DNA of 20,000 nt from an uncultured virus (IMG/VR IMGVR_UViG_3300017992_000735) (IMGVR_UViG_3300017992_000735), one strand, 5' to 3'; positions 904-18,321 are shown, numbered from the stretch's first letter. Notes: generated from the sequence alone by a model not told the origin. A program made the numbers and translations.

Positions 904-2165
904 ATCACTAGTGCAGTCACCGCGTAGATTTCAAAGGCAAAAGCTGTACAGCCTCTTGGCAGATCTACATAACTTAATGGTGTTTGTGTACTCTTATACA
1001 CAATAGGTTCTCCATTATGATAAACTCTTAATGGATACACCGTCGAGCTAAATATATCTGCCCCCGTCGTCGTGGCAGTGAACCGGAAGTCCGGAACCAG
1101 GATCAACTCTCCTACGAACGTCTGGATTCTCGGAGCTAGCGTGAAGCCAGCCACGATGCCTCCGCGGTCCTGGTTGATCTGGATCATTTGGACGGGCTGT
1201 GTCCCTCCGGTGGCGCCCAAGCTCAGGTAGCCGATAGCGATGGCTCGGAGAGCTTTGGGGTGACCGAAGATGTGGGTGGGTCTTGCACACCCAGCAGCGA
1301 GGAAGTTGTCGAACTCTTCCTCGTCATAGGTCCCGGTCGGGTTGCTGTTGGTCCGCGCACCGTTTGCAGATGTGACTTGGGTCTCGATCCCGTCGAAAGC
1401 GTTCGCAACTGTAGCGATTGCTCCCTTGACCAGGGCGAGGTCCCACTTGTTCAGCACAGTCACTTCCTGGAGTTTCATCATCTTCTCTTTGACTCCGATC
1501 ACTGTTTCGATTCCAGAGTCTAGAGAAAGTCGGCTGATCCCCAATCCCTGCGCGCGTGCGACTGCTATCGAGTGACGTAAGTCCTCGTAGGTGATAGACT
1601 CATAACTGCCGATGTACTTGCGGGCAATTGTAGTCGTCTCACCCTCATGCGTGGTCTCGTCCGGACAAGCTCCTTTAGTGAAGAAGCCATGGGACGCCTC
1701 CCCCGTGGTGTCGAAGCTCAGGCTGGTCATCTCTCGCCAGCTATCTGAGTTGTAATCGGTCACCACTTCAGGCAACGTCTTCCAGACTGTGATCTCCTCA
1801 CACATGTCCAAAACCTCAGTCGGATCTAGAGGCTGAGGATACTGGTTAGAGAAGTCTGCGGGCTGCGTATAGGGCTGAGGCAGGATATTTGGGTCGGTTT
1901 GGGTCTTCTCAACCATTCCCTTGATGACTTCCACAGCGGGATCGCCTTCCGGCTCCGGCTGGTTCAGGTTCTCATAAACAGACTGAGCAACCTGCTGCAT
2001 CTCGGTCATGGTCAAGTCCTCGCCGCCCTTAGCCTCTCGCACCTGTAACACGGCCCTAGCAACAATGTCCTCGATGTTCGGACCTTCGGCAGGTTCACGA
2101 CGACCTGCGATGTCGGCGGCACTCTTGGTCACGATATCGGTAATCGTAGGAACCAAGAGTTCCAC
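904..2165 (-). CDS. Major capsid protein, exon 1 (probable HK97-fold with N-terminal scaffold-like extension)
   Basis: Directly downstream of the protease-scaffold gene; strong RBS AAGGAGGT before GTG. Capsid-like segments include (WDLALVKG..NAFDGIETQV, PTHIFGHP, TFVGELILVPDFRF). Confidence 0.8.
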
Positions 2166-4437: not shown

Positions 4438-4465
4438 CAGTTGGCTTACTGCCTTGGCCTCAAGA

Positions 4466-4513
4466 ATTATATCATTTTCCTCTTTATTGTAACATAGAAG
4501 AGGGAGAAATCAA
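4466..4513 (-). promoter_or_regulatory. Putative sigma70-type promoter(s) for head genes
   Basis: TTGATT-N16-TACAAT with extended TG (4486-4513), and a second extended -10 TGATATAAT (4466-4474), in the intergenic region. Confidence 0.5.
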
Positions 4514-4515
4514 AA

Positions 4516-4767
4516 TCACACCTTATACCCCCACCTGCCAGGATTCTGCAAAAACTCCTCAGCGTTCTCCAGAGAGCCCCCCTCCAACCACAACATATTA
4601 TCCCCTAGCCCCTCCTCAGACTCCAAAACCTCAGAAGTAACCTCGCGGGATGTATTGATAATCTCAGTTACATCCTCCTCAAAAGGACCAGTTACCACAA
4701 CCTGATCTGGGGCGATATCCACAGTTGCAGCATATTCACCATCTAGTCTATATACCTTCACTTCCAC
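4516..4767 (-). CDS. Small acidic protein, putative partner or inhibitor of the upstream metallopeptidase
   Basis: 83 aa; overlaps the upstream stop. Shares the pattern VKVY..G..A/G....EFL...GY.V with ORFs at 13683, 15411 and 16246. Confidence 0.7.
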   Translation of the reverse strand: MEVKVYRLDGEYAATVDIAPDQVVVTGPFEEDVTEIINTSREVTSEVLESEEGLGDNMLWLEGGSLENAEEFLQNPGRWGYKV

Positions 4768-5537
4768 TCCTCCGGCATTCTATCACCAAGGACAGCTCCC
4801 ACCATCTCATGTGATTCCGGAAAATAATGCTTATAGAAACCCACTTCCCTTTTATTCGAGTACCTTTTCACACATTCTATACTCTCTGCAAAGAATTCCC
4901 GCTCTGTTTTCTTTGCATAGTTCGTAGGAAACCGATCAAAAAGCCAGGCTCGGTCGTACGGATTATCTTTTGCCCGAATCACCTTGGATGACTTAGCCAC
5001 TCCCTTCGTTTCACTCAGTGTGTAATCCAGCGCATGTCCCCACTCATGCCAAACTGTGCCATAACTGGCAAACCCCTGAGGTGTGTCTAGGTTAGCAGAT
5101 GTTTGCGGCCCAAAAACAATTTCATCTGTGTACACCCTGTAAAATCCAGCGCAACCCCTAGCCGAACCTCCATATACGCGATCGAATTCTTCTTGGGTTT
5201 TTGTTGTGATAAAAGTAACCTCAGTATCGGGTTGAGGCATCCCTTGCAGACTGTATGCTATCTCAGTAGCTTGGTTCTTTGTAACACGCGAACCCACACG
5301 GTGCCCACCAGTAGCCTCCTCAAACTTACTCCTATAGTTGTCATCAGTCCAATCAACAGTACTAACCTTTCCCACAACAGCGGGCGCCTTACTGGGAGCA
5401 CTTCCCCCTCTCCTGCCCTTGCGCCCTTTGTGACCCCAATGACCACTTCCAGGCCCGCCTTTCTCAACCTCTGACTTGCCTACGTAGAATTCAATCTCTT
5501 TTCCTAACCCTGCGATCTCCGACGGAGTCGCTGCCAA
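4758..5537 (-). CDS. GGPGSG-tagged zincin metallopeptidase domain (probably the C-terminal half of a MuF fusion, 4758-6149)
   Basis: Tag at 5388-5459. HEWGH plus downstream YA....EFFAES (gluzincin, lethal-factor-like signature). In frame with MuF across one TGA. Confidence 0.8.
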   Translation of the reverse strand: MAATPSEIAGLGKEIEFYVGKSEVEKGGPGSGHWGHKGRKGRRGGSAPSKAPAVVGKVSTVDWTDDNYRSKFEEATGGHRVGSRVTKNQATEIAYSLQGMPQPDTEVTFITTKTQEEFDRVYGGSARGCAGFYRVYTDEIVFGPQTSANLDTPQGFASYGTVWHEWGHALDYTLSETKGVAKSSKVIRAKDNPYDRAWLFDRFPTNYAKKTEREFFAESIECVKRYSNKREVGFYKHYFPESHEMVGAVLGDRMPEEWK

Positions 5538-5546
5538 GTGGCACCT

Positions 5547-6149
5547 TCAGACGTTCGGGTGAGCTGGCGGCCCACCACACTTTTCTCCAAAAACGTTATC
5601 AAAGGTCTTCGAGTTAACCGGCTGGGGACCCATCGCCTCATTAGCCTTACAGACCTCACATGCGTCCGCTCCAATGGTCACCCATCGCTTTGTTTCAAGG
5701 CCGACTTCGTCCATCTGCTTTTCCCAAGCAGAAGACTGGGCACGAGCAATTTCAAACCGAGTGATCGAGCGGATCCTTTGCTCACTAAACTCGCTCTGCT
5801 CGAATAAATTTTTAAAAATTCCGTCTATCAGGTCTTGTTCGGGGATCCCTTCTTGGAGACCGTTGTAGATCATAGTGCGGAGGTAGTGTTTGGTTCCTCT
5901 GTTGACGTTTCGAACCATCTCTGCTGCTCTGTCTTGAATAAATTCCAGAGCAACAGGATCTACCAGGTCAAAAGCCAACTCAATTGCTACCCCAGCCAGC
6001 TCTCCGATGTACTCTGCTGCCCCTTCTAGCCCGTCTAAGTAAGCCAGAGTTAACGCTGCAATGAGTTCGTCAGAAACGTCTATTGACCAAAACTCTTCTG
6101 AGTCGTCTAGGATCTCATCTATTCGGTCCCACAGTTCTTCGTCAGCCAC
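5547..6149 (-). CDS. MuF / SPP1 gp7-like head morphogenesis protein
   Basis: RIRSITRFEIARA, KRWVTIGADACEVC and PPAHPN motifs; RBS AGGAG. The ORF ends at a TGA inside the HP..CRC motif (HPNV*RCHL). Confidence 0.85.
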   Translation of the reverse strand: MADEELWDRIDEILDDSEEFWSIDVSDELIAALTLAYLDGLEGAAEYIGELAGVAIELAFDLVDPVALEFIQDRAAEMVRNVNRGTKHYLRTMIYNGLQEGIPEQDLIDGIFKNLFEQSEFSEQRIRSITRFEIARAQSSAWEKQMDEVGLETKRWVTIGADACEVCKANEAMGPQPVNSKTFDNVFGEKCGGPPAHPNV

Positions 6150-6161
6150 TCAAAAAGTCTC

Positions 6162-7010
6162 CTACTCTCGCGGCACCGTTGTACTTGTATCAGATACATA
6201 TACCTTGCCCCTGTTCAATATAATCGTCTCAGGCAACCCTTGCCCATCTAAACCTTGAATAGCATCATAACCCAACAACGCCGGGAGCCGAGCCATATCG
6301 TGTCGCGCAAACTCCGCTACATCATTTGAAATCCGAGAATATTCTGTTATATCCCTTACCAAATCCTTGTTTGTTGGGTCCTTAGCAAGACGAACAGATA
6401 ACTTATTAAGTTCGGTATCTCTCAACTTGCTAAACTGGTCGTGTAATCTATGAACTTCTGCCTCTGTAACAACTTTAGCCCCTTTACTAAGAGCCATCCT
6501 AGTGACAACTCCGCCCTCGCTTTTCGCAAAATGTTTAGCATGGCTTTCGGCATCCCTACCATGTGCAGCATGAACCCCGCTGGCATAAAATCCACTCCCA
6601 GTATGCAATCTACCTGACCTAAACTGTTCGGCGTACTCTGCCGCTCGGGCTCCTCCCTCCGCCCTAAACATCTCCAGTCCACCAGAACCGATAACGCTGT
6701 CTAGCTCCTTCTCCGTTACCACACTCGGCAGTGAATTATAACCAATCTCGGCGAACAGTCTTCCTGTGATCTCCTCCTTTGTGCCTTCCTCTCCTAAACG
6801 ACCTATCATTCCACCAATATCCGTAAAACCGGTAGGAGAAACCAGATCCGCCAACGGCGTAAGTCTTCCAGCTCTAGAGGGAGCCGACCCACCTCTTTTG
6901 CCCTTTCGTCCTCGATGTCCCCAATGACCTGAGCCAGGGCCTCCCATCGCCCGAAAATCACCAAGAGAAGATTCTATTAGATTGACAATACCTGCAGACA
7001 AGTCAGCCAT
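6162..7010 (-). CDS. GGPGSG-tagged ADP-ribosyltransferase-like protein
   Basis: Start most likely ATG at 7010 (TAATG overlap with the upstream stop). Tag at 6873-6944. EMFRA..GSGFYASG..GYDAI..ETIILNR pattern; paralog of 10822-11949. Confidence 0.6.
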   Translation of the reverse strand: MADLSAGIVNLIESSLGDFRAMGGPGSGHWGHRGRKGKRGGSAPSRAGRLTPLADLVSPTGFTDIGGMIGRLGEEGTKEEITGRLFAEIGYNSLPSVVTEKELDSVIGSGGLEMFRAEGGARAAEYAEQFRSGRLHTGSGFYASGVHAAHGRDAESHAKHFAKSEGGVVTRMALSKGAKVVTEAEVHRLHDQFSKLRDTELNKLSVRLAKDPTNKDLVRDITEYSRISNDVAEFARHDMARLPALLGYDAIQGLDGQGLPETIILNRGKVYVSDTSTTVPRE

Positions 7011-8407
7011 TACCATTTCCAATCAGGATAACTACTCCCCAAATTACTTACCTGATCCCTTGCCACAATTAGTTCTTTATTGAAAATCGCCCTATCCTCA
7101 CAAATCAGAACAGGGGAAACCCAGAATAATTCTCCCCCGACTTCATAATCAACTATAGCGCACCCATTCTGCCACTGTGGACCTGAACTAAACCCAGGTA
7201 CCCGGCCATCTATCCAGCAGGCACACCCAGGTGAGAACCCAACAACCTGCTTTATCTCCTTAGCGCGGTGTATCGTTCTGCTTCCCCACTCCACCTTGTG
7301 AGTGTGGCCGAAAATCTCATTCGTGTCTCCACTCTCAATAACTGCTTTGGCAGTATTTCCGGGAATTCTCGCTATCTCGCCGTGGGTCAAGCGTAAAAAC
7401 TCATTTAACCATACCTCCCCACTCGGGTAATCTCCAACCCATTCTATCTCTAAACTGTCCAACCCTAGTAGACGGGGCACACTCATAGCTGGTGGCATCT
7501 CCATCTCATCGGCGGGCCGGAGGTCATAAGCGGCTCTCAAGTGAGTGACAATGGCATCTTGCAACCTTTTACCGTGGTTCCCTTCGTAAACAGTCATCTC
7601 CTCACAACATTGCCGAAATTGAGACAACCACCAGTGAGCTTCCAGTACAGAAGGCTGAGTCGTTTCGCAGAACTCTGGAGATTTTGTATATTTTGTAGAC
7701 CACTCAGCCAAATCTAACATATCCCCCAAAACATCCACACGGTCCACTTCAGCTATTTGAGCTACTTGGAGGATAACATCTAGAACTGCACGGTTATGGA
7801 GAGGAGTAAGCTCACCTGTTGTAATATCACGAATAAATCCAAAATGGGGATCTGAAAATATAAGCGTTCTGCGCAGTTCCCCTTTTCGTGCCTTATATGC
7901 CTGTGGAAGTTTGAAAATCTTGCACTCAACCGGCTGGAGGACTGGGAAGATCGGTTCCGGCTCAATACGTGATAACCAAACTTTGACTTGGAACAGGGGA
8001 GCAATAACAAGTCCGTCCTCGTATACAGAACCAGTTAGACGCCCCTCATCCCAAGTAAGATCCTTTTTGGCTGCCTTAGCACCAACGGGCCACTTGTTTA
8101 CAAGGTACCGGTCAACCTTCCAGACATTTAAATCTACCTGGCAAACTTCAAGCATCTCATCGAGAGTTTTGATTCCAGCAAACTGTGCCTCAACAACCAT
8201 AGTGTTAACCCGTTCATCTCTTTTGACAGTTTGCCGATCTTTCCTGCCTCTTTTTTCTCTCTCTCGAATATACTTCTGCCGAGCAGAGCTCTCAGAGACA
8301 CCAAACATCTCCCCCACTTCTCTCCAGGACTGCCCAGATGCTTCGATGTTGTCTCCCATAGAGATTAGTAGATTTGTCTCGTCTTGGGTCCAGCGCTTAT
8401 TGGCCAA
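7010..8407 (-). CDS. Calcineurin-like metallophosphoesterase with N-terminal HTH/Myb-like domain
   Basis: All five motifs are present: FSDPH, GDMLD, GNH, THG, GHTH. N-terminal RWTQDE..SWREVGEMFGVSESSARQKY. Confidence 0.85.
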   Translation of the reverse strand: MANKRWTQDETNLLISMGDNIEASGQSWREVGEMFGVSESSARQKYIREREKRGRKDRQTVKRDERVNTMVVEAQFAGIKTLDEMLEVCQVDLNVWKVDRYLVNKWPVGAKAAKKDLTWDEGRLTGSVYEDGLVIAPLFQVKVWLSRIEPEPIFPVLQPVECKIFKLPQAYKARKGELRRTLIFSDPHFGFIRDITTGELTPLHNRAVLDVILQVAQIAEVDRVDVLGDMLDLAEWSTKYTKSPEFCETTQPSVLEAHWWLSQFRQCCEEMTVYEGNHGKRLQDAIVTHLRAAYDLRPADEMEMPPAMSVPRLLGLDSLEIEWVGDYPSGEVWLNEFLRLTHGEIARIPGNTAKAVIESGDTNEIFGHTHKVEWGSRTIHRAKEIKQVVGFSPGCACWIDGRVPGFSSGPQWQNGCAIVDYEVGGELFWVSPVLICEDRAIFNKELIVARDQVSNLGSSYPDWKW

Positions 8408-8410
8408 AAA

Positions 8411-9877
8411 CTACTCCTTTAGCTGATTGAAAATGTTCTCGATGCTTCCCTTTACTGCCTTTCCATACAACTGATCCGCTAGGACATCTTGCATCATTTT
8501 AAAAGCTTTGGTTTGTTCAAGGTCATCTCCTACGTCTTGCTTCAACAGGAGGGTTTCCTCGACTATATGGGCAGCTTTCACTGCGGGAGGATACTCAGGA
8601 TATTCTCCTTTTGGTTTTTGAGCCTTAGGTGGAACTTCCTTTTGGGCAGGAGGTTTGGGCAGACCCTGGATTCCTTCTTGTATTGCTCCCGGTTTAACAG
8701 GGATTGAAAATATTCCGTCTTCAACTGCCTGCTCTAGCATATCCTCTGCTGCCAGTGCCCCAGCTCCTACCATCTGACCCAGGTAAGCAATTCGCAAACC
8801 CTCAGCCTGGCGCCGTTTGACTACGTCCTCAATCTCAGGAACGTCCCAATCGAACATGATTGGGCAATCTGGCGGGAAGAACTGCCGGTTGATCGCCCGC
8901 TTCTCGTCGTAGGCGAACCCACCCACGCCAGTGCGTTGGGTAGTTAACCTCTGTACACGAGCTCCAGCAAGCGTCCTATCGTGCTCCGCCAGGCCAAGGC
9001 TACCTATGGTCAAACCATATGGTGTTCCACATTTCTCCGCGTAATGCTTCCATTTTTCGCTAACATTCAGCTCAGGTTGACCAAAAGGAACAAATTTGGC
9101 AGGAGTCTCGTGTTCATACAGCAAAGGAATCTTAATGGGATTCACACCCATCATCATTTCTTCGAAACCTTTTTTCCACTCTGTCACGTCCGCTTCCGAG
9201 AAATCCATTAAATCCAAGATTCCTGCAATGGGGGTATCCGATAAACTTTTCAAATCATAAGTATAAAGCCTTGCCAACGCTTCTATCACTTGATAATTTT
9301 GTTCTACAGGGCTTTTTTGATACCCAAAGAGCTTTATGCTCGTCTGCGGAAGGTACATAAGTCGAGCAATTTCTCGACGTTTAAACGCGATTGGCCGCTG
9401 ATTGTCATTCGGATCCATCTGGACGTATGGATAGTTTGGGTTGCCTTGATTGATATACATCGTACCAGCATCCACGTGCACTATTCCAGCAGGGTAACCA
9501 GCAGGGAACTTCCCACCAAACGCACCATCTGGCCACCACATAATCTCTAAAGAACCCCCAAAAGGTAGATCGTAGCTATCTTTCTCCCACATAACCTTTA
9601 GGAGATCGAACCTAACATGCTCGAAAAGTTCCTCATAATACTCAGTTATCTCTAATACTTCATCGCTCTTTGGGTCCACCCCCTTCTTTGGAGTAAACTT
9701 ATACTCAAGTTTCAAGGATCTCACAAGATGTGTCTGGTACGAAAGGTTTACAGGCTCTGATGCCAGATACCGCCACTGCGTGCTTGAGAACATAGAAGGC
9801 ACACGAGACGGCTGTAAAAATGGTCTTGTGTTTACATCCAGATATGCTACTGATCTTCTCTTCGGTTCTGCTGCCAT
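8411..9877 (-). CDS. Portal protein
   Basis: 488 aa from ATG 9877 (TAATG overlap with the upstream stop, GAGG RBS). Located between terminase and MuF. Portal-like segments GIVHVDAGTM, PYVQM, FGYQKSPVE, AGILDL, YGLTIGSLGL. Confidence 0.75.
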   Translation of the reverse strand: MAAEPKRRSVAYLDVNTRPFLQPSRVPSMFSSTQWRYLASEPVNLSYQTHLVRSLKLEYKFTPKKGVDPKSDEVLEITEYYEELFEHVRFDLLKVMWEKDSYDLPFGGSLEIMWWPDGAFGGKFPAGYPAGIVHVDAGTMYINQGNPNYPYVQMDPNDNQRPIAFKRREIARLMYLPQTSIKLFGYQKSPVEQNYQVIEALARLYTYDLKSLSDTPIAGILDLMDFSEADVTEWKKGFEEMMMGVNPIKIPLLYEHETPAKFVPFGQPELNVSEKWKHYAEKCGTPYGLTIGSLGLAEHDRTLAGARVQRLTTQRTGVGGFAYDEKRAINRQFFPPDCPIMFDWDVPEIEDVVKRRQAEGLRIAYLGQMVGAGALAAEDMLEQAVEDGIFSIPVKPGAIQEGIQGLPKPPAQKEVPPKAQKPKGEYPEYPPAVKAAHIVEETLLLKQDVGDDLEQTKAFKMMQDVLADQLYGKAVKGSIENIFNQLKE

Positions 9878-10770
9878 TAGAATAACCTCTCCATATGAGG
9901 AGCCCCCACACCCTTGGTAGAACTTAGCGGCAGAATCCAATTCTCAACTAAAAAATCTGCTCCGTACTCCTCCAGTTGAAAATCCCAGATTGCAACCACA
10001 AAGTATCCATTCTGATGCGCCCACCTAGCCTTTTCTATATCTCGCTCCTGCATGTCAGGGAGAGTATGCCAGTAGGACCCTTGAACCTCAATTAGTGTCC
10101 TGGGAGGCACGAACTCATCGTAGATCCTATAATACCCCTTCGGCCTATACTGAGATATGTGCCTAATCCCCTTCTCATCCAGAGCCCGAGATACATCAAT
10201 CTCTATAGAAGTAGGGGAGTCAAAAACTCCATCGTAGTCGCCTCTCCGCCAAGCCTCTTTTACGCTCTCAGACATCCTTGCACGGACTTCGTCGGTATAC
10301 ACCGCCCGGTTTCCAAGTAGAACTTTAGCCTCTCGGGCTCTCCGCATATTAGCCTGTACCTCATCCGGGTTATTCTCACACCACTGCCTTATCTTCCTAG
10401 ATTGCCGTACTCGGAGTTCCTCCGTCCATGCTCCCTCGTGATCGCCCCTATCCCAAGATTCCTTTATCTTACCCGACATCTCATGATGTCTATCAGGATC
10501 CTTCCACGCTGCAGTTGCTGCTCTAGATTTTTTCCGAGTTGTTTCACCACTACTGTGGTCTCCCCGACTCCACGCCTCCTTAGTGGTCTTGGAATATTTC
10601 CTCCTCGTCTCACTGCACATTAGCGGTGCTTCAGGAAACCTCTCCAGATACTCTACCGAAGATATCCCATGCTTAAACGGTAGATGGCGGTTATCTAAAC
10701 GCCTTGCCTTGGCACCGCATACCCTACAAACTATGTAATCTATTCCTTCCACGCCCATATCTTTTGCCAT
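9877..10770 (-). CDS. Vsr/DUF559-like endonuclease with zinc finger and NUMOD3-like repeats (putative homing endonuclease)
   Basis: CRVCG..H....H zinc finger; repeated ExRxKxSxxxKEAWxRGD helices; C-terminal PTSIE..YD..LIEVQGSYWH..D..K..GYFVVAIWD. Confidence 0.8.
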   Translation of the reverse strand: MAKDMGVEGIDYIVCRVCGAKARRLDNRHLPFKHGISSVEYLERFPEAPLMCSETRRKYSKTTKEAWSRGDHSSGETTRKKSRAATAAWKDPDRHHEMSGKIKESWDRGDHEGAWTEELRVRQSRKIRQWCENNPDEVQANMRRAREAKVLLGNRAVYTDEVRARMSESVKEAWRRGDYDGVFDSPTSIEIDVSRALDEKGIRHISQYRPKGYYRIYDEFVPPRTLIEVQGSYWHTLPDMQERDIEKARWAHQNGYFVVAIWDFQLEEYGADFLVENWILPLSSTKGVGAPHMERLF

Positions 10771-10821
10771 ATAATTACACCTTAATAAGCATCAGGTGCT
10801 AGAAATTTTTAAAAATTCCCC

Positions 10822-11949
10822 CTACTCAACGCGTCCCTCCAGAACAGCAATAAGATGGTGCATATCCTGCTCTAAGTATTTCCTCCGCGTATGCCATTTC
10901 TTAACTGTCCCCGGCGATTTGGATGTTGCTACCTTCTCTGCCGCTGCGATTGCCTGCTGACGCTTACTCTCTATTTGATTTCTCAGCCAGCTAACTCGAT
11001 GCTTCGGCAAAACAGCACTTGGGACAATTTTGCTCACATCCACCTGTTGCGACGGCAGTACTCGAGGAGACTTTATGGAACCTCGTTTAGGTGCTGTTGC
11101 ACTCATTGGGTTCTCTGCTATTCGCAGTGCAGATCTATTTAAAACCACCATGTAGCCCTGCTCCGATACATCTATTGCATCATAACCGCTAGCAGCAGCA
11201 AACCGCCCCCGATCTCCTGTCGCTATGTGTCCTACGACATCTCCATGCTGTTCTGCTATGTAAGAGGCCTGCATAAGATTATTCGCAGTCTTATTATCGC
11301 CACGATTCGCAGCAGCAAAGGCTTGGGTCCTCAGAGTATCAGGATCTACTTTTACGCTCTCCCGGCTTGCTAGCCATCCTTCCATCTCCTCCTTAAGCGC
11401 AGACTCACTTATAACGTTAGCATCTTTTTTCAGAGACATCCGAATTATAGTTGCGTTTTCTCCTTGCTTAGCTCCAAAGTACATTGCAGTACTATCTGCA
11501 TTCTCGCCGTAAACTGTATATAACCCTGCGCCATGCATACCGGTCCCCGTCTCAAACGAATCTCCATACATCAACTCCTCGGCATACTCCCCCCTAGATA
11601 CTCCACGGTAAAGCTCCCTCTCCCCAGAATTCACAAACTCATTTAGCTCAGAAGCAGTCACCACATCCGGTTTGCCATCGAACCCCTGCTCTTTGATAAT
11701 CTCATTGGCAATAGGATCCGTTCGGCTGCTGGGTGGGACATACGTGTCGACCCTCCCCTCGAGCACAGAATTCAAATATGGGGATTTGGCCACAGTTCCA
11801 GCCTTGCTGGGAGCGGAACCACCGCGCCTCCCTTTCCGCCCTTTGTGGCCCCAGTGTCCAGAACCGGGCCCACCCATCTCCTTGTACTCACCAAGGGACT
11901 CGTCTATTAAATTGATAATATCAGCGGAACATTGGGTAGAAGCCGTCAA
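10822..11949 (-). CDS. GGPGSG-tagged ADP-ribosyltransferase-like protein
   Basis: Tag at 11803-11874. ELYRGV..GTGMHGAGLY..GYDAIDV..YMVVLNR, plus a basic C-terminal extension. Confidence 0.62.
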   Translation of the reverse strand: MTASTQCSADIINLIDESLGEYKEMGGPGSGHWGHKGRKGRRGGSAPSKAGTVAKSPYLNSVLEGRVDTYVPPSSRTDPIANEIIKEQGFDGKPDVVTASELNEFVNSGERELYRGVSRGEYAEELMYGDSFETGTGMHGAGLYTVYGENADSTAMYFGAKQGENATIIRMSLKKDANVISESALKEEMEGWLASRESVKVDPDTLRTQAFAAANRGDNKTANNLMQASYIAEQHGDVVGHIATGDRGRFAAASGYDAIDVSEQGYMVVLNRSALRIAENPMSATAPKRGSIKSPRVLPSQQVDVSKIVPSAVLPKHRVSWLRNQIESKRQQAIAAAEKVATSKSPGTVKKWHTRRKYLEQDMHHLIAVLEGRVE

Positions 11950-13690
11950 CTGTATGATAACGCATCTCCTTCATGGGTTGAAAATCTTCCTCGTTCACTG
12001 GGAATGGCTTTTTATCTAAAATGTGATAAGTTCTCCCAGAAGCTGGGCCTCGAACTGTAAAGGGTGGCTGAAGTAAATACCGCAGCTCAAACCTGTCTCC
12101 TCGGTCAGCAGAAACAATCATGCCCGGGCTTAAGAATTTTAATTTTCTCCACCGCTTCCCATCGAAAAATCCCACATCGGGCCAGGCTAACATGACCGCC
12201 TCTGCTCGGTCTGGCGACTTAGTTCCCCGGTCCTTCATCTTGTCCTTCTGCTCGACAATAATTTTACCCCGGGAAGTCACCCCCCACCTTGGTGCAATCA
12301 TCTGTGACTGCAAAACTTCATCATCTGGCAAGTCCATTTCCGTAATACCCAAACGCATCATCCACCAGAGCTGATCTCTCAAAGACCAAAACTCCTCCGT
12401 GTAGTCTTTCTCATTGATAGGTGGTTTCTGGACATGGACTTCGAGAATCTTGACTCCTTCCGGAAGATCTCCAAGCTCACTAAGTTCCTTCAGCCTGTCG
12501 TGTACACCAGACCCTACTCCAATAATATCTACCCGAACCTCCTGAGGGTGATGTTTTCTAATCAGACGAACCGCCTGGCCAGCCACAGTCATCACATCTG
12601 CTCCCTCAAAAGTCCATAGTATTTCGGCGTGGTGTCCGAAAATCCCAGCAATCACTGACTCATCTCCCCCACCGAAGGCAACATCTATTCCGAACCGAAC
12701 AGGCTGGCCTGGTTTCTCAACTCGTTTGACTGCGGCGTCCACGGCAGACATGGGAATGATTTGATCTTCCCCCTCGCTTGGGAACCAGCCTAAGACCTTG
12801 GACTCTGCGAGGGGATTGGGCTTCCACCACTGGTCCGAGTCCGGAGGAAATTGAAAAAGTTCTACCTTTTGCTCTGGTAGCGGGTCAAAGACTCTCGCAC
12901 ACCACTTCCTTATTCGTTCTTGCACCCACTCCAACCGGACAGCTTTTGGGAAGGGAGGATCCTCTCCTTGTAGTTCTGCCAGTATATTGGGGTGATCGAG
13001 TGCACCAATGTGTATACAATGCCAGGTAGGATCGTTCGCAGCGTCGTAAAATGGTCCAGATCTCTCTAGGGGGTTTCCAATAGCAATAACTCGGTTATCA
13101 GGTCCAACTGGGATGTTGTCAACTGCGGCGTCCCAAATCGGCGCTCGGATACCAGGACCTTCGTCGAGTGCCACACATATCCTCTCCTCATGGAACCCCT
13201 GAAACCGGTTCTCTCGGTCGGTTGACAATCCTAGGGCGTAGTGTTTAGCAGAGTGCTTAATTTCCGTAGAGTAAGTTTTTCCGACAGATCCCTCTGGGCG
13301 CTGATCTCGGATTTCGCCCCACAGAAGCTTCTCGACTTGGGGCCAGGTGGGAGCGGTTGTCAGTGCAATCGAAGGATCAAAAACATCGAACCACCAGTTG
13401 ATAAGCCCACCCACAATGAACGTTTTGCCCACACCGAACGATGCTGGGACGATTGTATATTTGTTCATCTGGAATGACAAAGCAACCGCCACTTGTTTGT
13501 CCCACCACTCAACTTTGAGAACTTCCCGGGCGTACTCTTGGATGCTCTCGACGTACTTCGCATACTTCTTAGGAACGGCCAAGGATTTGTCCCGGTTCAT
13601 CCGTTCCCTAATCATTGCGACAAGTCTTCGGTCGTATTTTTCCTCCCAGTTTGGTGGGAGAGAATCTAGCCAGTCGGGAGCCCTAGTCAA
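11921..13690 (-). CDS. terL: Terminase large subunit
   Basis: Walker A ASFGVGKT, Walker B VALDEG, coupling motif IGNP, nuclease motifs FGIDVAFGGGDESV and KSPDRAEA. Confidence 0.93.
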   Translation of the reverse strand: MTRAPDWLDSLPPNWEEKYDRRLVAMIRERMNRDKSLAVPKKYAKYVESIQEYAREVLKVEWWDKQVAVALSFQMNKYTIVPASFGVGKTFIVGGLINWWFDVFDPSIALTTAPTWPQVEKLLWGEIRDQRPEGSVGKTYSTEIKHSAKHYALGLSTDRENRFQGFHEERICVALDEGPGIRAPIWDAAVDNIPVGPDNRVIAIGNPLERSGPFYDAANDPTWHCIHIGALDHPNILAELQGEDPPFPKAVRLEWVQERIRKWCARVFDPLPEQKVELFQFPPDSDQWWKPNPLAESKVLGWFPSEGEDQIIPMSAVDAAVKRVEKPGQPVRFGIDVAFGGGDESVIAGIFGHHAEILWTFEGADVMTVAGQAVRLIRKHHPQEVRVDIIGVGSGVHDRLKELSELGDLPEGVKILEVHVQKPPINEKDYTEEFWSLRDQLWWMMRLGITEMDLPDDEVLQSQMIAPRWGVTSRGKIIVEQKDKMKDRGTKSPDRAEAVMLAWPDVGFFDGKRWRKLKFLSPGMIVSADRGDRFELRYLLQPPFTVRGPASGRTYHILDKKPFPVNEEDFQPMKEMRYHTVDGFYPMFR

Positions 13691-13838
13691 AACGAAACCC
13701 CCGACTCTTCAGAAATTCTACAAGGTCTGCGCCTTCTGGACATCCCTTTTTCGCCTTCTTGAGGTCGGGGGAGTAGACTTGTACTACAAGCCAGCCAGTG
13801 AGCTGGCCCAGCTTGTTATAGATTTTTACTTTGCCCAT
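13683..13838 (-). CDS. Small hypothetical protein (51 aa), duplicate copy A
   Basis: Below the ORF-track cutoff. MGKVKIYNKLGQLTGWLVVQVYSPDLKKAKKGCPEGADLVEFLKSRGFRFD; AAAGGT RBS; fills the gap between neighbours. Confidence 0.8.
   Translation of the reverse strand: MGKVKIYNKLGQLTGWLVVQVYSPDLKKAKKGCPEGADLVEFLKSRGFRFD
13687..13781. repeat. 95-bp direct repeat, copy A (copy B at 15415-15509)
   Basis: 94 of 95 positions identical by direct comparison. Confidence 0.95.
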
Positions 13839-13850
13839 ACTGCTACCTTT

Positions 13851-14069
13851 CTAATCCACTCCATACAAACTTAGAATCACTGCACTTCGTACCGTCTCGG
13901 GACTGTTCGCGAACCAAGCCTCACCTACATCTACTCGCTCGAGATCCATGCAAGTTGATGGGCCCGTCCCATCAGTAAATATATAGATAGGTAAGTCTCC
14001 ATGCTGCTTTCGAATCTCTTCTAGATGATCGATTAGTTCACTAGTAAGCATAATACAAGTCTCCCTCAC
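13851..14069 (-). CDS. Hypothetical phage protein
   Basis: 72 aa; GTGA overlap with the upstream stop. LIDHLEEIRKQHGDLPIYI is typical of small phage proteins. Confidence 0.65.
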   Translation of the reverse strand: MRETCIMLTSELIDHLEEIRKQHGDLPIYIFTDGTGPSTCMDLERVDVGEAWFANSPETVRSAVILSLYGVD

Positions 14070-15418
14070 TCAAATAAGCTCGATAGAGATGTTGCCACCC
14101 GTTGTTCGGAAACAAGCACGTCTTCCACCCACCCACCTTCGGGACTGAGAACGAGTTGGGATTCGATTTGAGAAATGATAAAATCACTCTTAGATACCCC
14201 ACCCGGTACTATAGTAATATTTTTACCTTTGATAGAAGATACCTTATAGTTTCCTTTTATCAACCAAGGTTTCTCCTCGGGGTGATTAGAAAAATTCTTA
14301 AGGTTTGCTCCTCTCTGTGGGTTATCCAAAATAAACGTATATTTACGAGCCCCAAAAGCCCCACCAGCGGGACTAAGGCTCGAAAACTCACGCCCCAAGG
14401 TCCCAAAATCTACCTTGTCTCCCACAGATAGAGAGCCCTCCCAATCTGAACCGCGGTATAAACGAGGAGTACTTCTTAAATCTTGCTCTACCATACTTTT
14501 GATTATAGCTGCTGCTGCCAATTGCTTTGGTATCCACCGACGCTCTGGATTTGCTAAGTCCCTCTCGAAACGTTTGAGAGACACATGCCTAAATCCTGGG
14601 TCGCTTTGACCACTAAATCCCCCGCTGGTGAATAACCTTGCTTCTGCGTAGGCATCTGCATACTTCATGTACTCATTCTCGGGTACCTCATCATGCAGAT
14701 CCCCCAGAAGGGAGGTAAAACCCCGGTCGCGGGCATCTCGACCTATAGACACCAGTATACCCGGATCGTAACCATCCTTCTCCAACTGGCTTACAACCGC
14801 AGCGCCAAGAACGCCGACTGCCCCCGGCAAACTCCCTCCCCTCTTTCCTTTTCGACCAGCGTGACCCCAATGGCCACTTCCTGGTCCGCCTTTCTCTACC
14901 CATCCACCTTCGGGGCTGAGAACGAGTTGGGATTCGACTTGAGAAATGATAAAGTCGCTTTTTACCCGCAGGACTTTTCTTCCGATGTATGTGGCACCAT
15001 ATGGAGCTATGTGGGTATTATCTATAAAACCCGATATATCAACCCTATCCCAACCAGCTTCCGCTGCCATTAACTCCTCAAACCTCCTATCTATAGATCC
15101 CCAAGAAGTTTTACCCAACCCTCGAGACTCCATGCATCCTTCCCACCAGCTTTCAAGCTTAACCTCGTACAAAGTGTTATCCACCTCAGCCTGTATCGAG
15201 AAATCAGGGTCTATATTCCCCTGAATAACATCCACCTCGAATGCGTGCCAAGAAGACCAAGCACCACCTACCGGTTGAGGGCTAGAAATCCCACCAGCTT
15301 TAGAAGGGGCCGATCCACCGCGCTTACCTTTGCGGCCTTTGTGACCATGGTGGCCAGAACCGGGGCCGCCCATCTCAGTTAGTATGGCGCCTACTTCGGC
15401 AAAGAGGTCTCTACTCAA
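14066..15418 (-). CDS. Two-module GGPGSG-tagged polyprotein; second module is R-S-E type ADP-ribosyltransferase-like
   Basis: Tags at 15299-15370 and 14825-14890. LYRG..FSSLS..FSNHPEEKPWL..YKV in module 2. A 23-aa linker is duplicated. Confidence 0.7.
   Translation of the reverse strand: MSRDLFAEVGAILTEMGGPGSGHHGHKGRKGKRGGSAPSKAGGISSPQPVGGAWSSWHAFEVDVIQGNIDPDFSIQAEVDNTLYEVKLESWWEGCMESRGLGKTSWGSIDRRFEELMAAEAGWDRVDISGFIDNTHIAPYGATYIGRKVLRVKSDFIISQVESQLVLSPEGGWVEKGGPGSGHWGHAGRKGKRGGSLPGAVGVLGAAVVSQLEKDGYDPGILVSIGRDARDRGFTSLLGDLHDEVPENEYMKYADAYAEARLFTSGGFSGQSDPGFRHVSLKRFERDLANPERRWIPKQLAAAAIIKSMVEQDLRSTPRLYRGSDWEGSLSVGDKVDFGTLGREFSSLSPAGGAFGARKYTFILDNPQRGANLKNFSNHPEEKPWLIKGNYKVSSIKGKNITIVPGGVSKSDFIISQIESQLVLSPEGGWVEDVLVSEQRVATSLSSLFE
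14123..14191. repeat. Intragenic ~69-bp repeat, copy A (copy B at ~14894-14962)
   Basis: Encodes KSDFIISQ[IV]ESQLVLSPEGGWVE, 22 of 23 aa identical between the copies. Confidence 0.9.
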
Positions 15419-15575
15419 AACGAAACCCCCGACTCTTCAGAAATTCTACAAGGTCTGCGCCTTCTGGACATCCCTTTTTCGCCTTCTGGAGGTCGGGGGA
15501 GTAGACTTGCACCACCCCGTTGATGTACCACCCGACGAGTTGGCCCAACTTATTGTATATTTTTACTTTATCCAT
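15411..15575 (-). CDS. Small hypothetical protein (54 aa), duplicate copy B
   Basis: MDKVKIYNKLGQLVGWYINGVVQVYSPDLQKAKKGCPEGADLVEFLKSRGFRFE; GAGGAG RBS. Confidence 0.82.
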   Translation of the reverse strand: MDKVKIYNKLGQLVGWYINGVVQVYSPDLQKAKKGCPEGADLVEFLKSRGFRFE

Positions 15576-15578
15576 ATC

Positions 15579-16133
15579 TTACTCCTCAACCCAAATAGCC
15601 ACTTTGGGCCATAGCAAACCACATAAAACCTCTCTCTCATAAAACTCAACAGGAAAGTCAGCTACTACCCAATAAACTTCATCCTCCAACCAAGTTGTAT
15701 TCGGCTCCAAGACGGGCTCGTCCAGCACTCTAGTGGCCAACTCGTACTCCTCCTCTGGCAGGGGCAGCCCCCAGTAGTGCTTCACTCCATCTCGGATACC
15801 CAACCGTCTCTGACCAGCAGACCGTAGACGACCTGTGTCTTTAATATCTACAATAAGTAACTTCTCACACTCTGGAATGAATACGATTGCTCTCTTATTC
15901 GCCCACTGCGGCCAGTAACTGATGTCCCAGTCGTACACACACTGCCCAGTACTGTTCTTCCTACAATCATTGACTGCCATAGTCGGAGCGGCTAGATCCA
16001 ACTCCTGGCCGCTGCGCATTCTATCACCCTGACAAAAAGCTGGAGGACCGTAGGGAGTGGCCAAGCCAACCATATCTGGCATGCGGAGTGGGATACTAGT
16101 GTATAAGATTAAAGCTACCAGAATCTCAATCAC
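15579..16133 (-). CDS. Secreted or membrane-anchored protein, possibly RlpA/3D-like double-psi barrel cell-wall enzyme
   Basis: Hydrophobic N-terminus. ATPY..G..MRSG..TMAV..IVDIKDTG..VADF resembles RlpA/3D motif order. Confidence 0.45.
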   Translation of the reverse strand: MIEILVALILYTSIPLRMPDMVGLATPYGPPAFCQGDRMRSGQELDLAAPTMAVNDCRKNSTGQCVYDWDISYWPQWANKRAIVFIPECEKLLIVDIKDTGRLRSAGQRRLGIRDGVKHYWGLPLPEEEYELATRVLDEPVLEPNTTWLEDEVYWVVADFPVEFYEREVLCGLLWPKVAIWVEE

Positions 16134-16249
16134 CTAAGACGCCTTAGTTTAGGAATTTGAATAGATTTCTGTTTGATTACTTTCCCGGATCCGTCTTTGG
16201 TGACTTCAATCCGGACGGGCCAGTTTTTGCCTTTAGTAACTTCTTTCAT
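16130..16249 (-). CDS. Small basic hypothetical protein (39 aa)
   Basis: MKEVTKGKNWPVRIEVTKDGSGKVIKQKSIQIPKLRRLR; ATGA and GTGA overlaps with both neighbours. Confidence 0.6.
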   Translation of the reverse strand: MKEVTKGKNWPVRIEVTKDGSGKVIKQKSIQIPKLRRLR

Positions 16250-16506
16250 ACTACAACCTCATAGCCTTCTCGGAGGAGATAGATAATGAGCGCGTTGACA
16301 AAATCCGGATCTGTATCTGATACTATCTCCACGAAATCTATTATTTTATCCTCACCTACGACGTCTGAGCGGCTGGGTATAACCACAGACCGATCTTTAT
16401 TAACTGCAGCCATAATACCTTTGAGTCCTCGATCTGAAGTAGTAACTCGACCCAGCCGATCCATAGTCCCAACCTGCTTACCTGTTACACCGCTAAGGAT
16501 ATTCAT
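16246..16506 (-). CDS. Small protein, putative partner or inhibitor of the upstream metallopeptidase
   Basis: 86 aa; follows the 16503-17258 peptidase directly. Ends F...L...EGYEV, like 4516-4767. Confidence 0.7.
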   Translation of the reverse strand: MNILSGVTGKQVGTMDRLGRVTTSDRGLKGIMAAVNKDRSVVIPSRSDVVGEDKIIDFVEIVSDTDPDFVNALIIYLLREGYEVVV

Positions 16507-17258
16507 TTTATGTACTCCACCCCACCAAACACGTCATCTCGCATGTACTCATAAATCTCCGGAGCTCGCTTCTGTAAGGTCTTCGGGGCGCTTGTATACA
16601 TTTGGTAGCTTTCGGCAAATAACTCCTTGTGATCTTTCTGAGAGTATCGGGAAGGAAATCCCTTCCTCGGACCTCCTGCCTTTGTCGCTTCCGCCCGTAG
16701 TGCACTGGGGTGTATTCCGACTCGACCTTTCTTCTCCCTATAGAACTTTCCAAAATCTTCAACGTAACGCCGGTCTCCATACTGTGAGTTATGATTTTGA
16801 ACCACGTGACCAATCTCATGCACCACAGTGGCCTTATGCCAAATCCGCCTATTATGAGCTCCATAAGTCTCACTATTTAGCTCGATGTAGTTCCCTCTGC
16901 ACCGTCCCTCTGCTCCAGGGATATGGCGTTTCTCAATCCCATAGACCTTGTCTAGGTGCTCCTGGGGGAGATTGGCTACAGCACGCCTTATCACTCCTTT
17001 GTCTTTTTCAGTTAAAGAGGAGTGCAAACGGTCTTCATGCATAGCCGAATCCGTTGGGGGAGTGTGACCCTTGGCAGCAATCCTCTTAGCTGCTGCTTGA
17101 CGCTTTCTCCAGTCCTTGCCTGTTCGTCTAGACATAGCTCTAGAGCGCGGGAGGGACCCACCTCTTTTTCCTTTTCTGCCTGCGTGTCCCCAATTCCCAG
17201 ATCCGGGGCCACCGAGTTCTATGTAGTTGTCTATGATCTGGATAGCAATGTCTGTCAA
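16503..17258 (-). CDS. GGPGSG-tagged zincin metallopeptidase
   Basis: Tag at 17148-17213; HEIGH plus SRYS...ELFAES. Confidence 0.8.
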   Translation of the reverse strand: MTDIAIQIIDNYIELGGPGSGNWGHAGRKGKRGGSLPRSRAMSRRTGKDWRKRQAAAKRIAAKGHTPPTDSAMHEDRLHSSLTEKDKGVIRRAVANLPQEHLDKVYGIEKRHIPGAEGRCRGNYIELNSETYGAHNRRIWHKATVVHEIGHVVQNHNSQYGDRRYVEDFGKFYREKKGRVGIHPSALRAEATKAGGPRKGFPSRYSQKDHKELFAESYQMYTSAPKTLQKRAPEIYEYMRDDVFGGVEYIK

Positions 17259-18187
17259 ATGGTGACTCCTAACAGGTCCGTGACGTTGGCGATCCGGTTG
17301 AATAGGGTAGTCGACTCAGATCCAGCAAACAACAAACCAACCACTTCGCGGTCGCCGGTTAGAACAGCCGAACCGCTGTCTCCGCCCTCGCACATGTAGC
17401 CAGCCATAACTTGATCGGTGAAAGTGGCCATTTGATAGCCGTACAAAACGTTGGCCGTCACGTCAATTTGCTCGATAGTTCCGTGGGTAAGGCCAGTTGT
17501 GCGGCCACTCTTCTGAATACTCATGCCGAGTTCGGCTTCGGCTACTCCAGCGGGTTCGCCGATTTCGAGGATCTCGGGGGTGACGAGGTCAGATGACAGT
17601 GGAGTGGCTAGGGCGGCGTCTACGAGGTTCTCCGAGTTGTTGACTCCTCGGAGGCGGTAGCGAGACTTCATGGCTCGGGCAATCAAGTTCCCGGCACCGA
17701 TGATTCCATCCAAAATGGGACAACTGAACTCAACCGGAACAAACCGGTAAAGCGTAGCGATGAGGTCATCAACCGTTCCGCCGTCGTGGGGACCGGGCTG
17801 GACGATGTAGTCTCCTGGTTCTCCCGCGTTCGAGTTGGCCAAGACGTGGTTGTTGCTCAAAATATACCCTTCGGAGGTGAGGCAACCAAGTGTTCCAGCC
17901 GTGATGTCGACGTGACCAATAGACACTCCACCAGGAGCGGGGCGGTGCTTGCTCGTTCGCATCGCTCTCAAGACACCAACTTCCTGGACGTCTGTTTTGA
18001 TTCCATTGAGGTACTTGGGGACAGGTTCTACGGGGTTTGTTTGTTTCTGGACTACGGAGACGATGACAGCTAGGTCGTCGGTCCGCTCTCCTCCGACTCT
18101 CTTGTAGCCAACTCCTACAGCCACGACGTTCTTTTTGGCTAGTAAGTGGCTAGCGTATGCGGACTTGATAGATCTTACTTCGTTCAT
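17255..18187 (-). CDS. Trypsin-like (Nal1-like) serine protease
   Basis: Start likely ATG 18187 (AAAGGAG RBS). APGGVSIGH..TAGTLG, SNNHVLAN (His), VDAAL (Asp), KSGRTTG, GDSGS (Ser). Confidence 0.88.
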   Translation of the reverse strand: MNEVRSIKSAYASHLLAKKNVVAVGVGYKRVGGERTDDLAVIVSVVQKQTNPVEPVPKYLNGIKTDVQEVGVLRAMRTSKHRPAPGGVSIGHVDITAGTLGCLTSEGYILSNNHVLANSNAGEPGDYIVQPGPHDGGTVDDLIATLYRFVPVEFSCPILDGIIGAGNLIARAMKSRYRLRGVNNSENLVDAALATPLSSDLVTPEILEIGEPAGVAEAELGMSIQKSGRTTGLTHGTIEQIDVTANVLYGYQMATFTDQVMAGYMCEGGDSGSAVLTGDREVVGLLFAGSESTTLFNRIANVTDLLGVTI

Positions 18188-18321
18188 TTTTTCTCCTTTA
18201 CACAAGATGGGCAAGTAAATTCAATGACGGTCGTCCAGACTTTAGGTTTAGCGACTCTAGTAAACCACCCGTATGGCTTGGTAAACCAGCCTTTGCATTT
18301 CTTACACTTGTAGTAGATCAC
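18184..18321 (-). CDS. Small zinc-ribbon protein (45 aa)
   Basis: MIYYKCKKCKGWF...EFTCPSCVKEKK has two CxxC pairs; 4-nt overlaps with both neighbours. Confidence 0.65.
   Translation of the reverse strand: MIYYKCKKCKGWFTKPYGWFTRVAKPKVWTTVIEFTCPSCVKEKK

Follow-up and report, generated by a model that had tools for sequence, protein, structure and literature searches.

Head-packaged effectors and polyvalent proteins are already a known kind of system. In the definition of Iyer et al. (2017, PMC5512222), a polyvalent protein is a single polypeptide with 2-15 effector or structural domains, and such proteins are predicted to be processed by their own zincins and packaged in phage heads. In phage T4, Alt and the internal proteins IPI-III carry N-terminal capsid-targeting propeptides that are removed by gp21, which also trims Alt at its C-terminus (PMC9026906). 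The MuF polymorphic toxins of temperate phages, finally, consist of MuF with a C-terminal toxin (Jamet et al. 2017, PMC5576092). The present analysis concerns a 20,000-nucleotide stretch of DNA from an uncultured virus (IMG/VR IMGVR_UViG_3300017992_000735, hereafter the window), in which a 22-residue glycine-rich peptide, the tag, recurs in a set of genes lying among those for head formation and DNA packaging. The tag is conserved as a peptide, opens domain-sized modules in a large number of viral proteins, and keeps company with both effector and head domains; we propose that it may mark a maturation-cleavage junction of capsid-internal cargo.

Conservation, distribution and position of the tag

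The window corresponds, in reverse orientation, to positions 1-19989 of a 77,326-bp IMG/VR virus record (G000). A near-identical sister record (G001) is a complete genome of 108,853 bp with direct terminal repeats; the phage genome is about 109 kb, and the phage is not a jumbo phage. CheckV gives the 77-kb record as 27% complete and G001 as 100%, and the former value looks wrong or misleading.

The motif GGPGSG[HN][WH]GH[KRA]GRKG[KR]RGGS[AL]P has six copies in the window, all on the minus strand, in frame and 66 nt long. They are spread over five minus-strand open reading frames (ORFs), the one of 450 residues (aa) holding two:

17148..17213, minus strand: tag copy 1 (GGPGSGNWGHAGRKGKRGGSLP), in the 251-aa zincin
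15305..15370, minus strand: tag copy 2, the first tag of the 450-aa protein
14825..14890, minus strand: tag copy 3, internal, the second tag of the 450-aa protein
11809..11874, minus strand: tag copy 4, in the 375-aa protein
6879..6944, minus strand: tag copy 5, in the 286-aa protein
5394..5459, minus strand: tag copy 6, in the 259-aa zincin

All six had been listed in the initial annotation, and their starts (17213, 15370, 14890, 11874, 6944 and 5459) coincide exactly with the upper coordinates that it gave. Two further copies lie beyond these, bringing the total in G001 to eight. The seventh (G000:C1:57432-57920, outside the window) is found in a 162-aa protein amid head-tail connector genes, whose payload of 122 residues has a pI of 10.5 and 29 K+R; the eighth, in G001 only, belongs to a 319-aa protein encoded directly after the small terminase. 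With its small and basic payload, the seventh protein is reminiscent of small basic internal proteins.

Among the seven contig copies, 17 alignment columns are invariant, and the per-copy profile E-values in G001 range from 3.6e-28 to 1e-19, which excludes chance as the source of the recurrence. Over the 21 copy pairs the amino-acid identity is 89%, compared with a nucleotide identity of 68%, and 69% of the identical residues are encoded by different codons, including AGT versus TCN for Ser and AGA versus CGN for Arg. Judged from these sequences, selection on the tag acts at the level of the peptide, so that two points of the initial annotation, codon divergence between the copies and a portable conserved peptide, are upheld.

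The tag stretches do not correspond to any family or structure that our searches covered. Pfam returned no family at E ≤ 10 for the six stretches, a profile search of the PDB found no chain with the tag, and PDB sequence searches with the 375-aa and 450-aa proteins gave no match. With tblastn, the 47 residues of leader and tag matched nothing among the GenBank phages, a result that the low-complexity filter probably explains. A literature word search with the motif strings gave no phage paper, the GGPGSG matches being split-GFP linkers and adenylate-kinase P-loops. We have also considered mimicry of a Walker-A motif, GGPGSGK being a P-loop word, which was dropped because the Lys is replaced and the fold context is absent, and a collagen-like (G-X-Y)5 triple helix, for which the stretch is too short. 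A translation start at the Met just before GG, conceivable in three genes, was likewise dropped, as the leaders are conserved as peptides between paralogues and relatives.

A first profile, built from the seven leader-plus-tag stretches, was searched against 1.84 billion cluster representatives, an earlier word-index search with the tag region having given 32 candidates only. It matched 2,705 proteins at E ≤ 1e-3, 537 at ≤ 1e-10 and 55 at ≤ 1e-30, the strongest matches being proteins of 1,000-3,150 residues with 4-10 matched stretches each. A second, broader profile recovered 1,459 proteins among the 8,000 scored. Scanning viral contigs with patterns of this phage's variant yielded 239 stretches, of which 134 were confirmed, at 66 loci, and the same scan of prokaryote genomes confirmed 20 stretches at 17 loci, mostly on contigs of metagenome-assembled genomes (Oscillospiraceae, Lachnospiraceae and other Clostridia). 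The general consensus that emerges is x-GGPGSG-[NH]-[FWH]-GH-x-GR-P-G-x-x-GGS-[AL]-P.

The domains found with the tag are those of effectors and of head proteins. Pfam matches were obtained for 17 of the 27 top polyproteins, ten of the 27 carrying ART-PolyVal or ADPrib_exo_Tox, both ADP-ribosyltransferase (ART) families; the other domains include Zeta_toxin, ParB_N, LigT/2'-5' RNA ligase, PolyA_pol, SprT/DUF2268 zincins and HINT/intein, and one of the 27 holds a Peptidase_S78_2 prohead protease within the tag-delimited protein. From the viral loci, 60 of the 69 distinct tag-bearing proteins were scanned, nine near-duplicates being dropped. Matches were found in 29 of the 60, with ADPrib_exo_Tox in 14, fusions to Phage_portal_3 in five (four of them also with NUDIX), to MuF in one and to DUF2213 in one, together with DRAT, GNAT, PI3/PI4-kinase-like, Gln_amidase and PARP domains. 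The statement of the initial annotation that the tag precedes diverse enzymatic payloads is thus borne out by the relatives. Head anchors occur in 20 of the 120 best matches of the second profile (MuF 6, Phage_portal_3 6, Phage_portal 5, S78_2 3), all 120 coming from metagenome sources and none bearing a curated-source name. The C-terminal region of a portal faces the capsid interior, so that portal-tag-effector fusions would place the tagged modules inside the head; from the fusions, the same location is suggested for modules joined to MuF and prohead-protease domains.

Two features of the tag-bearing loci can be mentioned here in their own right. A gene for an ADP-ribosylglycohydrolase (phrog_6572, ~1e-50) stands beside tagged exotoxin-type ARTs at L023, L028, L033, L043 and L044, and its product may act as an antidote to the packaged ART or as a partner that reverses its effect. 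Some tag-bearing polyproteins (L010:3748-7524, P0007 and P0149) are interrupted by inteins or HINT domains, with DUF559/restriction endonuclease (REase) inserts.

The gene neighbourhoods were tabulated for 24 loci, picked from the 66 as apparently distinct lineages. A PHROG head-and-packaging gene is present among the untagged same-strand neighbours (~6 kb) at 19 of them, and inclusion of L015 through its fusions gives 20 of 24, a raw tally without a base-rate comparison. The profile search and neighbour tabulation suggested in the initial annotation thus find a widespread tag with a head or packaging gene near it or fused to it at most of these loci.

The position of the tag was analysed in 150 proteins with 655 tags between them. 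In 97 of these proteins no more than 60 residues separate the first tag from the N-terminus, and in 62 no more than 25. The last tag comes as close as 100 residues to the C-terminus in just 4, and it is followed by a median of 259 residues. The median tag-to-tag spacing is 227 residues. Since the tags are near N-termini and rarely near C-termini, the tag opens each domain-sized module and is not a symmetric linker.

The residue directly ahead of the first Gly (position -1) behaves differently from those before it. Within a protein, the dominant residue at -1 accounts for a fraction of 0.93, compared with 0.49, 0.54 and 0.44 at positions -2 to -4 and a background of ~0.37; an independent regular-expression count gives 0.92, against 0.53 in shuffles (maximum 0.56 in 200 shuffles). 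Overall the residue is K in 45%, R in 23% and L in 16% of the cases, followed by A, E and others, and it varies with the head-gene lineage: D in 5/6 for Phage_portal_3, N in 4/5 for Phage_portal, L or A in 5/6 for MuF and K in 2/2 for S78_2. We infer from this pattern a resemblance to the P1 site of a protease, that is, a lineage-specific single residue abutting an invariant block. In the present phage, all seven contig copies have a residue with a long side chain (K, M, L or R) at position -1, and six of the seven have E at -2; the eighth copy has K at -1 and Q at -2.

Among close relatives, an exchange of payloads around the tag is visible. P0151 has the same first leader as the 450-aa protein, together with its two tags and its closing elements; the payloads come in the order ART then zincin, compared with a module without a match followed by an ART-like one in the window. 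P0152 joins a leader and tag of the 286/375 type to a zincin payload of the 259-aa type. The swapping of payloads behind the same leader and tag, proposed in the initial annotation, is seen in these two relatives.

A putative maturation junction and its alternatives

We propose that the tag is a maturation-cleavage junction and a retained N-terminal prefix on capsid-internal cargo, a reading on which, from the sequences at hand, our judgement is evenly balanced between acceptance and doubt. The tag would be the conserved module-start junction of phage polyvalent head proteins, each enzyme module of ~230 residues beginning with it. Most carriers are giant polyproteins, and in many of these a portal, MuF or prohead-protease domain belongs to the same chain. 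A phage protease would cut immediately before the first Gly of the tag, the HK97-type prohead protease being the first choice for this enzyme and the co-encoded tagged zincins the second. After its release, a module would have the flexible Gly-rich tag as a tail at its N-terminus while in the capsid, and it would leave together with the DNA on ejection; the tail could serve as an anchor, as an unfolded lead-in for portal exit, or in a second recognition step. In the present phage the polyprotein would be broken into at least seven separate genes. The acidic amphipathic leader of each would act like the capsid-targeting sequence of T4, bringing the module into the prohead, and would then be removed at the junction (…E-[K/M/L/R] before the cut, GGPGSG… after it).

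The presence in the window of a predicted prohead protease, at the N-terminus of a 713-aa protein, lends support to the cleavage. The tripeptide VEK precedes two of the tags, and it occurs four times in the 713-aa protease-scaffold, where 0.66 are expected from the composition, and once in the putative capsid protein, at residues 85-87, where it is plausible as a propeptide boundary. Removal of propeptides by the prohead protease is thus suggested indirectly, through the pattern at -1/-2 and the VEK common to the scaffold and the capsid protein.

The leaders of this phage are acidic amphipathic stretches of 15-26 residues, and that of the 375-aa protein is predicted helical, at low confidence, in an AlphaFold2 (AF2) model. 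Leaders elsewhere can be just 8-9 residues long, and an acidic helix leader is seen only in this lineage and in the L010/L019/L047 lineage, where analogous helices stand ahead of the tags, internal ones included. The helix leader is therefore lineage-specific and not part of a universal unit. The "leader plus basic tag" of the initial annotation does not hold as a general unit for this reason, and also because the basic charge of the tag is peculiar to this phage. A hidden Markov model of the leader, run on the contig, matched tagged proteins only; the scaffold, the capsid protein and the other genes do not carry the leader. A complex prediction for the S78-like domain with leader plus tag scored 0.64, with 0.55 for one unrelated control, and so speaks neither for nor against the junction.

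A number of points weigh against a cleaved junction with a retained tail. Cleavage, packaging, ejection and the role of the tail are all inferred from sequence. The constancy of position -1 could arise partly from intragenic duplication rather than from protease specificity, and the present phage differs from most carriers in that several residues occur at position -1, conservation being seen at -2 instead. The enrichment of VEK was spotted post hoc, and the large terminase subunit (TerL) also has two VEKs. The invariant prime-side stretch of 20 residues far exceeds the usual need of a protease, and for this reason cleavage alone does not explain the tag. The AF2 models, with a pLDDT of 45.6 for the 375-aa family (4-row alignment) and 32.2 for the 450-aa protein alone, are too poor for a structural statement. 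The head-neighbourhood figure lacks a base rate, as said above, and among the 24 loci no head gene was found near the tags at L012 (where replication genes lie), L047, L056 and L070. Furthermore, the tag was not found in any cultured phage: PSS2 gp030, the homologous protein of phage Versailles and 20 kb of FP_Brigit do not have it, and these polyvalent/portal proteins, which share the domains, were accordingly discarded as carriers of the tag.

We have also considered that the tag is an uncut address or docking peptide that binds the prohead interior (capsid lumen, portal crown, scaffold or MuF), which we regard as unlikely, though less so than the readings that follow. Any enzyme with the tag would then be encapsidated, in the way that the cargo-loading peptides of encapsulins bind a shell of the HK97 fold. 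Conservation of 22 residues across very different head-gene lineages is what one would expect of such a peptide, and so are the prefixing of every module by the tag, its presence on stand-alone proteins whose leaders can be of just 8-9 residues, and the flanking of the stand-alone MuF gene by tagged genes in this phage. However, an address would be redundant in polyproteins fused to portal or MuF, and yet up to 10 copies occur there. It also leaves the protein-specific residue at position -1 unexplained, and a partner common to S78, DUF2213 and different portal families is not obvious.

The tag could instead be a flexible inter-domain linker, inherited by duplication and not specifically recognized. 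It is indeed Gly-rich, it lies between domains, and it is coil in the 375-aa model with a pLDDT of ~28-36, although this model is poor overall. A linker would nevertheless hardly keep eleven invariant columns, including His, Arg and two Ser, over 69 diverse copies, nor its peptide identity despite heavy synonymous divergence. In 62 proteins the tag is so near the N-terminus, at 25 residues or fewer, that a linker would have nothing to connect, and tags are almost never found at C-termini. We consider this explanation improbable.

We judge just as improbable a role of the tag as an arm of the RGG or AT-hook type, which would bind nucleic acid and tether the cargo to the packaged DNA for co-ejection. 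The copies of this phage have a net charge of +4/+5 and contain RGG, the seventh tagged protein has the basic payload mentioned above, and the common variant of the tag has a GRP core. Over the 655 tags, however, the net charge averages +0.9, with a range of -3 to +5; the commonest form, GRPGEVGGS, is close to neutral, and the AT-hook core R-G-R-P is absent, the copies reading GRKG here and GRPG elsewhere. As the high charge is peculiar to this phage, charge-based DNA binding is unlikely as a conserved function, and the DNA-binding role entertained in the initial annotation is not supported in that form. Finally, an in-frame recombination joint for cassette swaps, selected for evolvability or DNA homology and not for peptide biochemistry, would fit the recombination of payloads and leaders around the tag in close relatives, but is very improbable given that the conservation is at the amino-acid level and that the copies, 68% identical in nucleotides with scattered synonymous differences, are too dissimilar for efficient homologous exchange.

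The cleaved junction with a retained prefix can be extended to a more general proposal, which we hold only tentatively and would sooner doubt than accept: the tag and the residue preceding it may form a general polyprotein code of tailed phages, in which the head protease of each lineage would cut at its own P1 residue, ahead of the invariant GGPGSG…GGS peptide, and the retained peptide would hold each cargo enzyme in the capsid and thread it through the portal and tail. If so, thousands of unrelated phages would possess in it a portable signal by which arbitrary proteins can be loaded and delivered, and the proteins so marked would make up a very large and unexplored repertoire of injected enzymes with anti-host and anti-defence roles.

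The first weapons that a phage brings to bear on host defences are the proteins packaged in its head and injected. To our knowledge, only a few model phages (T4, P1, N4 and phiKZ-like phages) have had theirs characterized in detail. A 22-residue module-start signature, present in ~2,700 protein clusters, would give a listing of candidate injected effectors of uncultured phages from sequence only. It also suggests a processing rule, namely a lineage-specific P1 residue followed by the invariant tag, and the tag could serve as a compact label for loading foreign proteins into capsids.

Tagged genes, payloads and the head operon

The tagged genes of the window and the neighbours that bear on them are the following:

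17255..18214, minus strand: trypsin-like serine protease (phrog_20754, 3.2e-61; Pfam Trypsin_2)
16503..17258, minus strand: 251-aa gene; 15-residue acidic leader, tag, HEIGH zincin (lethal-factor-type metallopeptidase family)
14066..15418, minus strand: 450-aa gene; leader, tag, domain without a match and closing element, then tag, ART-like domain and closing element
14891..14962, minus strand: internal closing/leader element KSDFIISQVESQLVLSPEGGWVEK, directly ahead of tag copy 3
14123..14191, minus strand: second copy of the closing element, close to the C-terminal end of the 450-aa protein and not followed by a tag
11921..13690, minus strand: TerL (phrog_2, 6.9e-27)
10822..11949, minus strand: 375-aa gene; leader, tag, payload paralogous to that of the 286-aa protein
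8411..9940, minus strand: putative portal protein (weak phrog_12 match, E 0.0098, plus position)
6162..7022, minus strand: 286-aa gene; leader, tag, possibly ART-PolyVal-like payload
5547..6149, minus strand: MuF-like head morphogenesis protein, 200 aa, no tag (phrog_2662, 4.1e-13; phrog_2468, 7.9e-13)
4758..5537, minus strand: 259-aa gene; leader ending KSEVEK, tag, HEWGH zincin
2203..4344, minus strand: 713-aa predicted prohead protease (HK97/S78-like, residues 1-190) fused to an acidic scaffold with four VEK motifs
804..2165, minus strand: putative major capsid protein (position and weak phrog_212 match, E 0.18), with GMVEK at residues 83-87

In the direction of transcription, the order begins just outside the window, in G001 only, with the small terminase (phrog_2538, 1.8e-11) and the tagged 319-aa gene. 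After several genes it continues with a DUF3307 membrane protein, the trypsin-like protease, the tagged 251-aa gene, a 184-aa gene with no assigned family, the tagged 450-aa gene and TerL. These are followed by the tagged 375-aa gene, a 297-aa Zn-finger/REase-like protein, the putative portal, a metallophosphoesterase and the tagged 286-aa gene, and then by the MuF-like gene, the tagged 259-aa zincin, the 713-aa protease-scaffold and the putative major capsid gene. The interleaving of tagged genes with terminase, portal and MuF, as described in the initial annotation, is solid for TerL and MuF; for the portal it depends on the weak PHROG match and otherwise on position.

The two zincins differ in how well they are assigned. 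The 251-aa protein, which has the HEIGH motif, scores 29.9 bits with Pfam ATLF, against a cut-off of 27.4 bits, and an AGGAG Shine-Dalgarno-like word lies 7 nt ahead of its TTG start. The 259-aa protein has HEWGH, with weak family matches (ATLF, E 0.17; phrog_4415, E 0.02), and its payload matches P0152 (E 6e-37), the leader of which differs. The payloads of the 375-aa and 286-aa proteins are paralogous (36% identity, E 9e-41) and are nearest to ART-PolyVal clusters in the ESM Atlas (0.88-0.89), which is a language-model lead; alignments of these payloads to ART-PolyVal and exotoxin-ART families with hhalign were not significant. This type of payload is the C-terminal module of MuF proteins. 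It is joined to PF04233 MuF in the relative P0159, and it matches the C-terminal part of gp030 from cyanophage PSS2, which contains both MuF and Zeta_toxin and has no tag.

The first module of the 450-aa protein has no family match in the profile scans, in line with the one unknown domain of the initial annotation. The second is homologous to the region of module 1 in P0151 (E 2e-13), P0151 being a protein with PF03496, while its alignment to ARTs is not significant (hhalign E 0.021). Compared with the assignments of the initial annotation, two peptidases and three ART-like domains, one zincin is thus firm and the other weak in family terms, the 286/375 payloads are ART-like at the level of a lead, and the third ART-like domain is suggested by its homology to P0151 and not by direct alignment. 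In the eighth tagged protein, LYRG, SWSVS and EGEVV were seen by eye as candidates for an ART triad. Both modules of the 450-aa protein end in the closing element KSDFIISQ[VI]ESQLVLSPEGGWVE, the second copy lying 18 residues from the C-terminus; this tagless copy, which P0151 has as well, is a candidate C-terminal processing site.

The assignment of the 713-aa N-terminus comes from ESM Atlas structure rows, with TM values of 0.64-0.71 to Peptidase_S78 clusters and one row only to S77. No Pfam or PHROG match was obtained for this protein, and BLASTP of its protease-like N-terminus against a DUF2213-tag protein showed no similarity. In the scaffold part, at residues ~300-340 (window 3300-3450, minus strand), there is a CxxC...CxxC zinc-ribbon-like pair, with weak Zn-ribbon Pfam matches, and it is preceded by a degenerate Gly-rich stretch directly after KSEVEK. 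The gene of the trypsin-like protease is directly upstream of the tagged 251-aa zincin, overlapping its start by 4 nt; none was found beside the tags at the 24 other loci. Its product is an alternative candidate for the processing, which would then be peculiar to this phage, or may itself be cargo.

Three other genes of the region are worth recording. In the 297-aa protein (9877-10770, minus strand), a zinc finger of the ROS/MucR type is combined with a C-terminus that weakly resembles REase/HNH enzymes. Its gene follows the tagged 375-aa gene and overlaps the ORF of the putative portal, which comes next; it may represent a homing endonuclease that was inserted into the head operon. On the plus strand, at window positions 3-512, a gene for an HNH endonuclease (Pfam HNH, 2.5e-9) lies opposite to and just past the capsid gene. 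The metallophosphoesterase (7010-8407, minus strand; phrog_20266, 1.4e-34) lies between the portal and tagged genes and has an extra N-terminal region of ~150 residues and no tag. It may enter the head by some other route, or may not belong to the cargo at all.

Comparison with described systems

The cargo-loading peptides of encapsulins are short and conserved, stand on diverse enzymes and target the lumen of an HK97-fold shell. They differ from the tag in being usually C-terminal, of unrelated sequence and without associated cleavage.

A closer parallel in position is the 25-residue motif of Pfam DUF7211 (PF23847), which occupies the same place directly ahead of an exotoxin-type ART (L038:5000-5689) in a phage head locus. 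Its sequence, of the YGVKGMKWGVRK type, differs from the tag, no match to DUF7211 was found at its 27-bit threshold in the window tags or in G001, and a literature word search for "DUF7211" returned no paper. The L038 locus carries both the DUF7211 motif and the GGPGSG tag, which suggests that at least two interchangeable module-start peptides exist.

The MuF toxins share with the tagged proteins and their relatives the pairing of MuF with C-terminal effector modules, the payload of the 286/375 type being likewise fused to MuF in P0159 and PSS2 gp030. In the window, by contrast, MuF is a stand-alone protein of 200 aa, and the effectors carry leader and tag instead.

There is also a likeness to the capsid-targeting system of T4. 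There, as here, a short N-terminal leader is found on diverse cargo that includes an ADP-ribosyltransferase and is encoded with the head genes, and the leader ends at a protease-type junction, which in the present case is read from the sequence. The C-terminal trimming of Alt has a parallel in the tagless C-terminal junction copy of the 450-aa protein. The T4 cargo, as described, does not have a conserved Gly-rich segment of 22 residues after the cut, unlike the proteins considered here, and gp21 is an S77 protease, whereas the protease here looks S78/HK97-like.

The closest relation is to the polyvalent proteins. Their ART-PolyVal, zincin, Zeta toxin, ParB, LigT and MuF domains are shared with the tag-bearing relatives, and there is agreement, too, in the head-gene context and in the predictions of processing and encapsidation (PMC5512222). 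In this phage the tagged genes lie among those for the small terminase, TerL, MuF, the protease-scaffold and the putative portal and capsid proteins. The polyvalent repertoire is clear in the relatives; in the window it consists of one zincin above the Pfam cut-off, one weak zincin and ART-PolyVal as a language-model lead. The words "glycine" and "linker" do not occur in the searchable text of PMC5512222, where the tag is not described, the supplementary alignments lying outside that text. The tag, the module-start rule, the lineage-specific preceding residue and the split multi-gene form all appear to be undescribed. As to the number of domains in one polypeptide, the window proteins fall short of the polyvalent definition, with one module each and two in the 450-aa protein, whereas the relatives reach up to 10 tag-delimited modules. 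The new system of six tagged effectors put forward in the initial annotation is therefore better described as a split form of known polyvalent proteins, and it indicates that a polyvalent protein can exist distributed over several genes.

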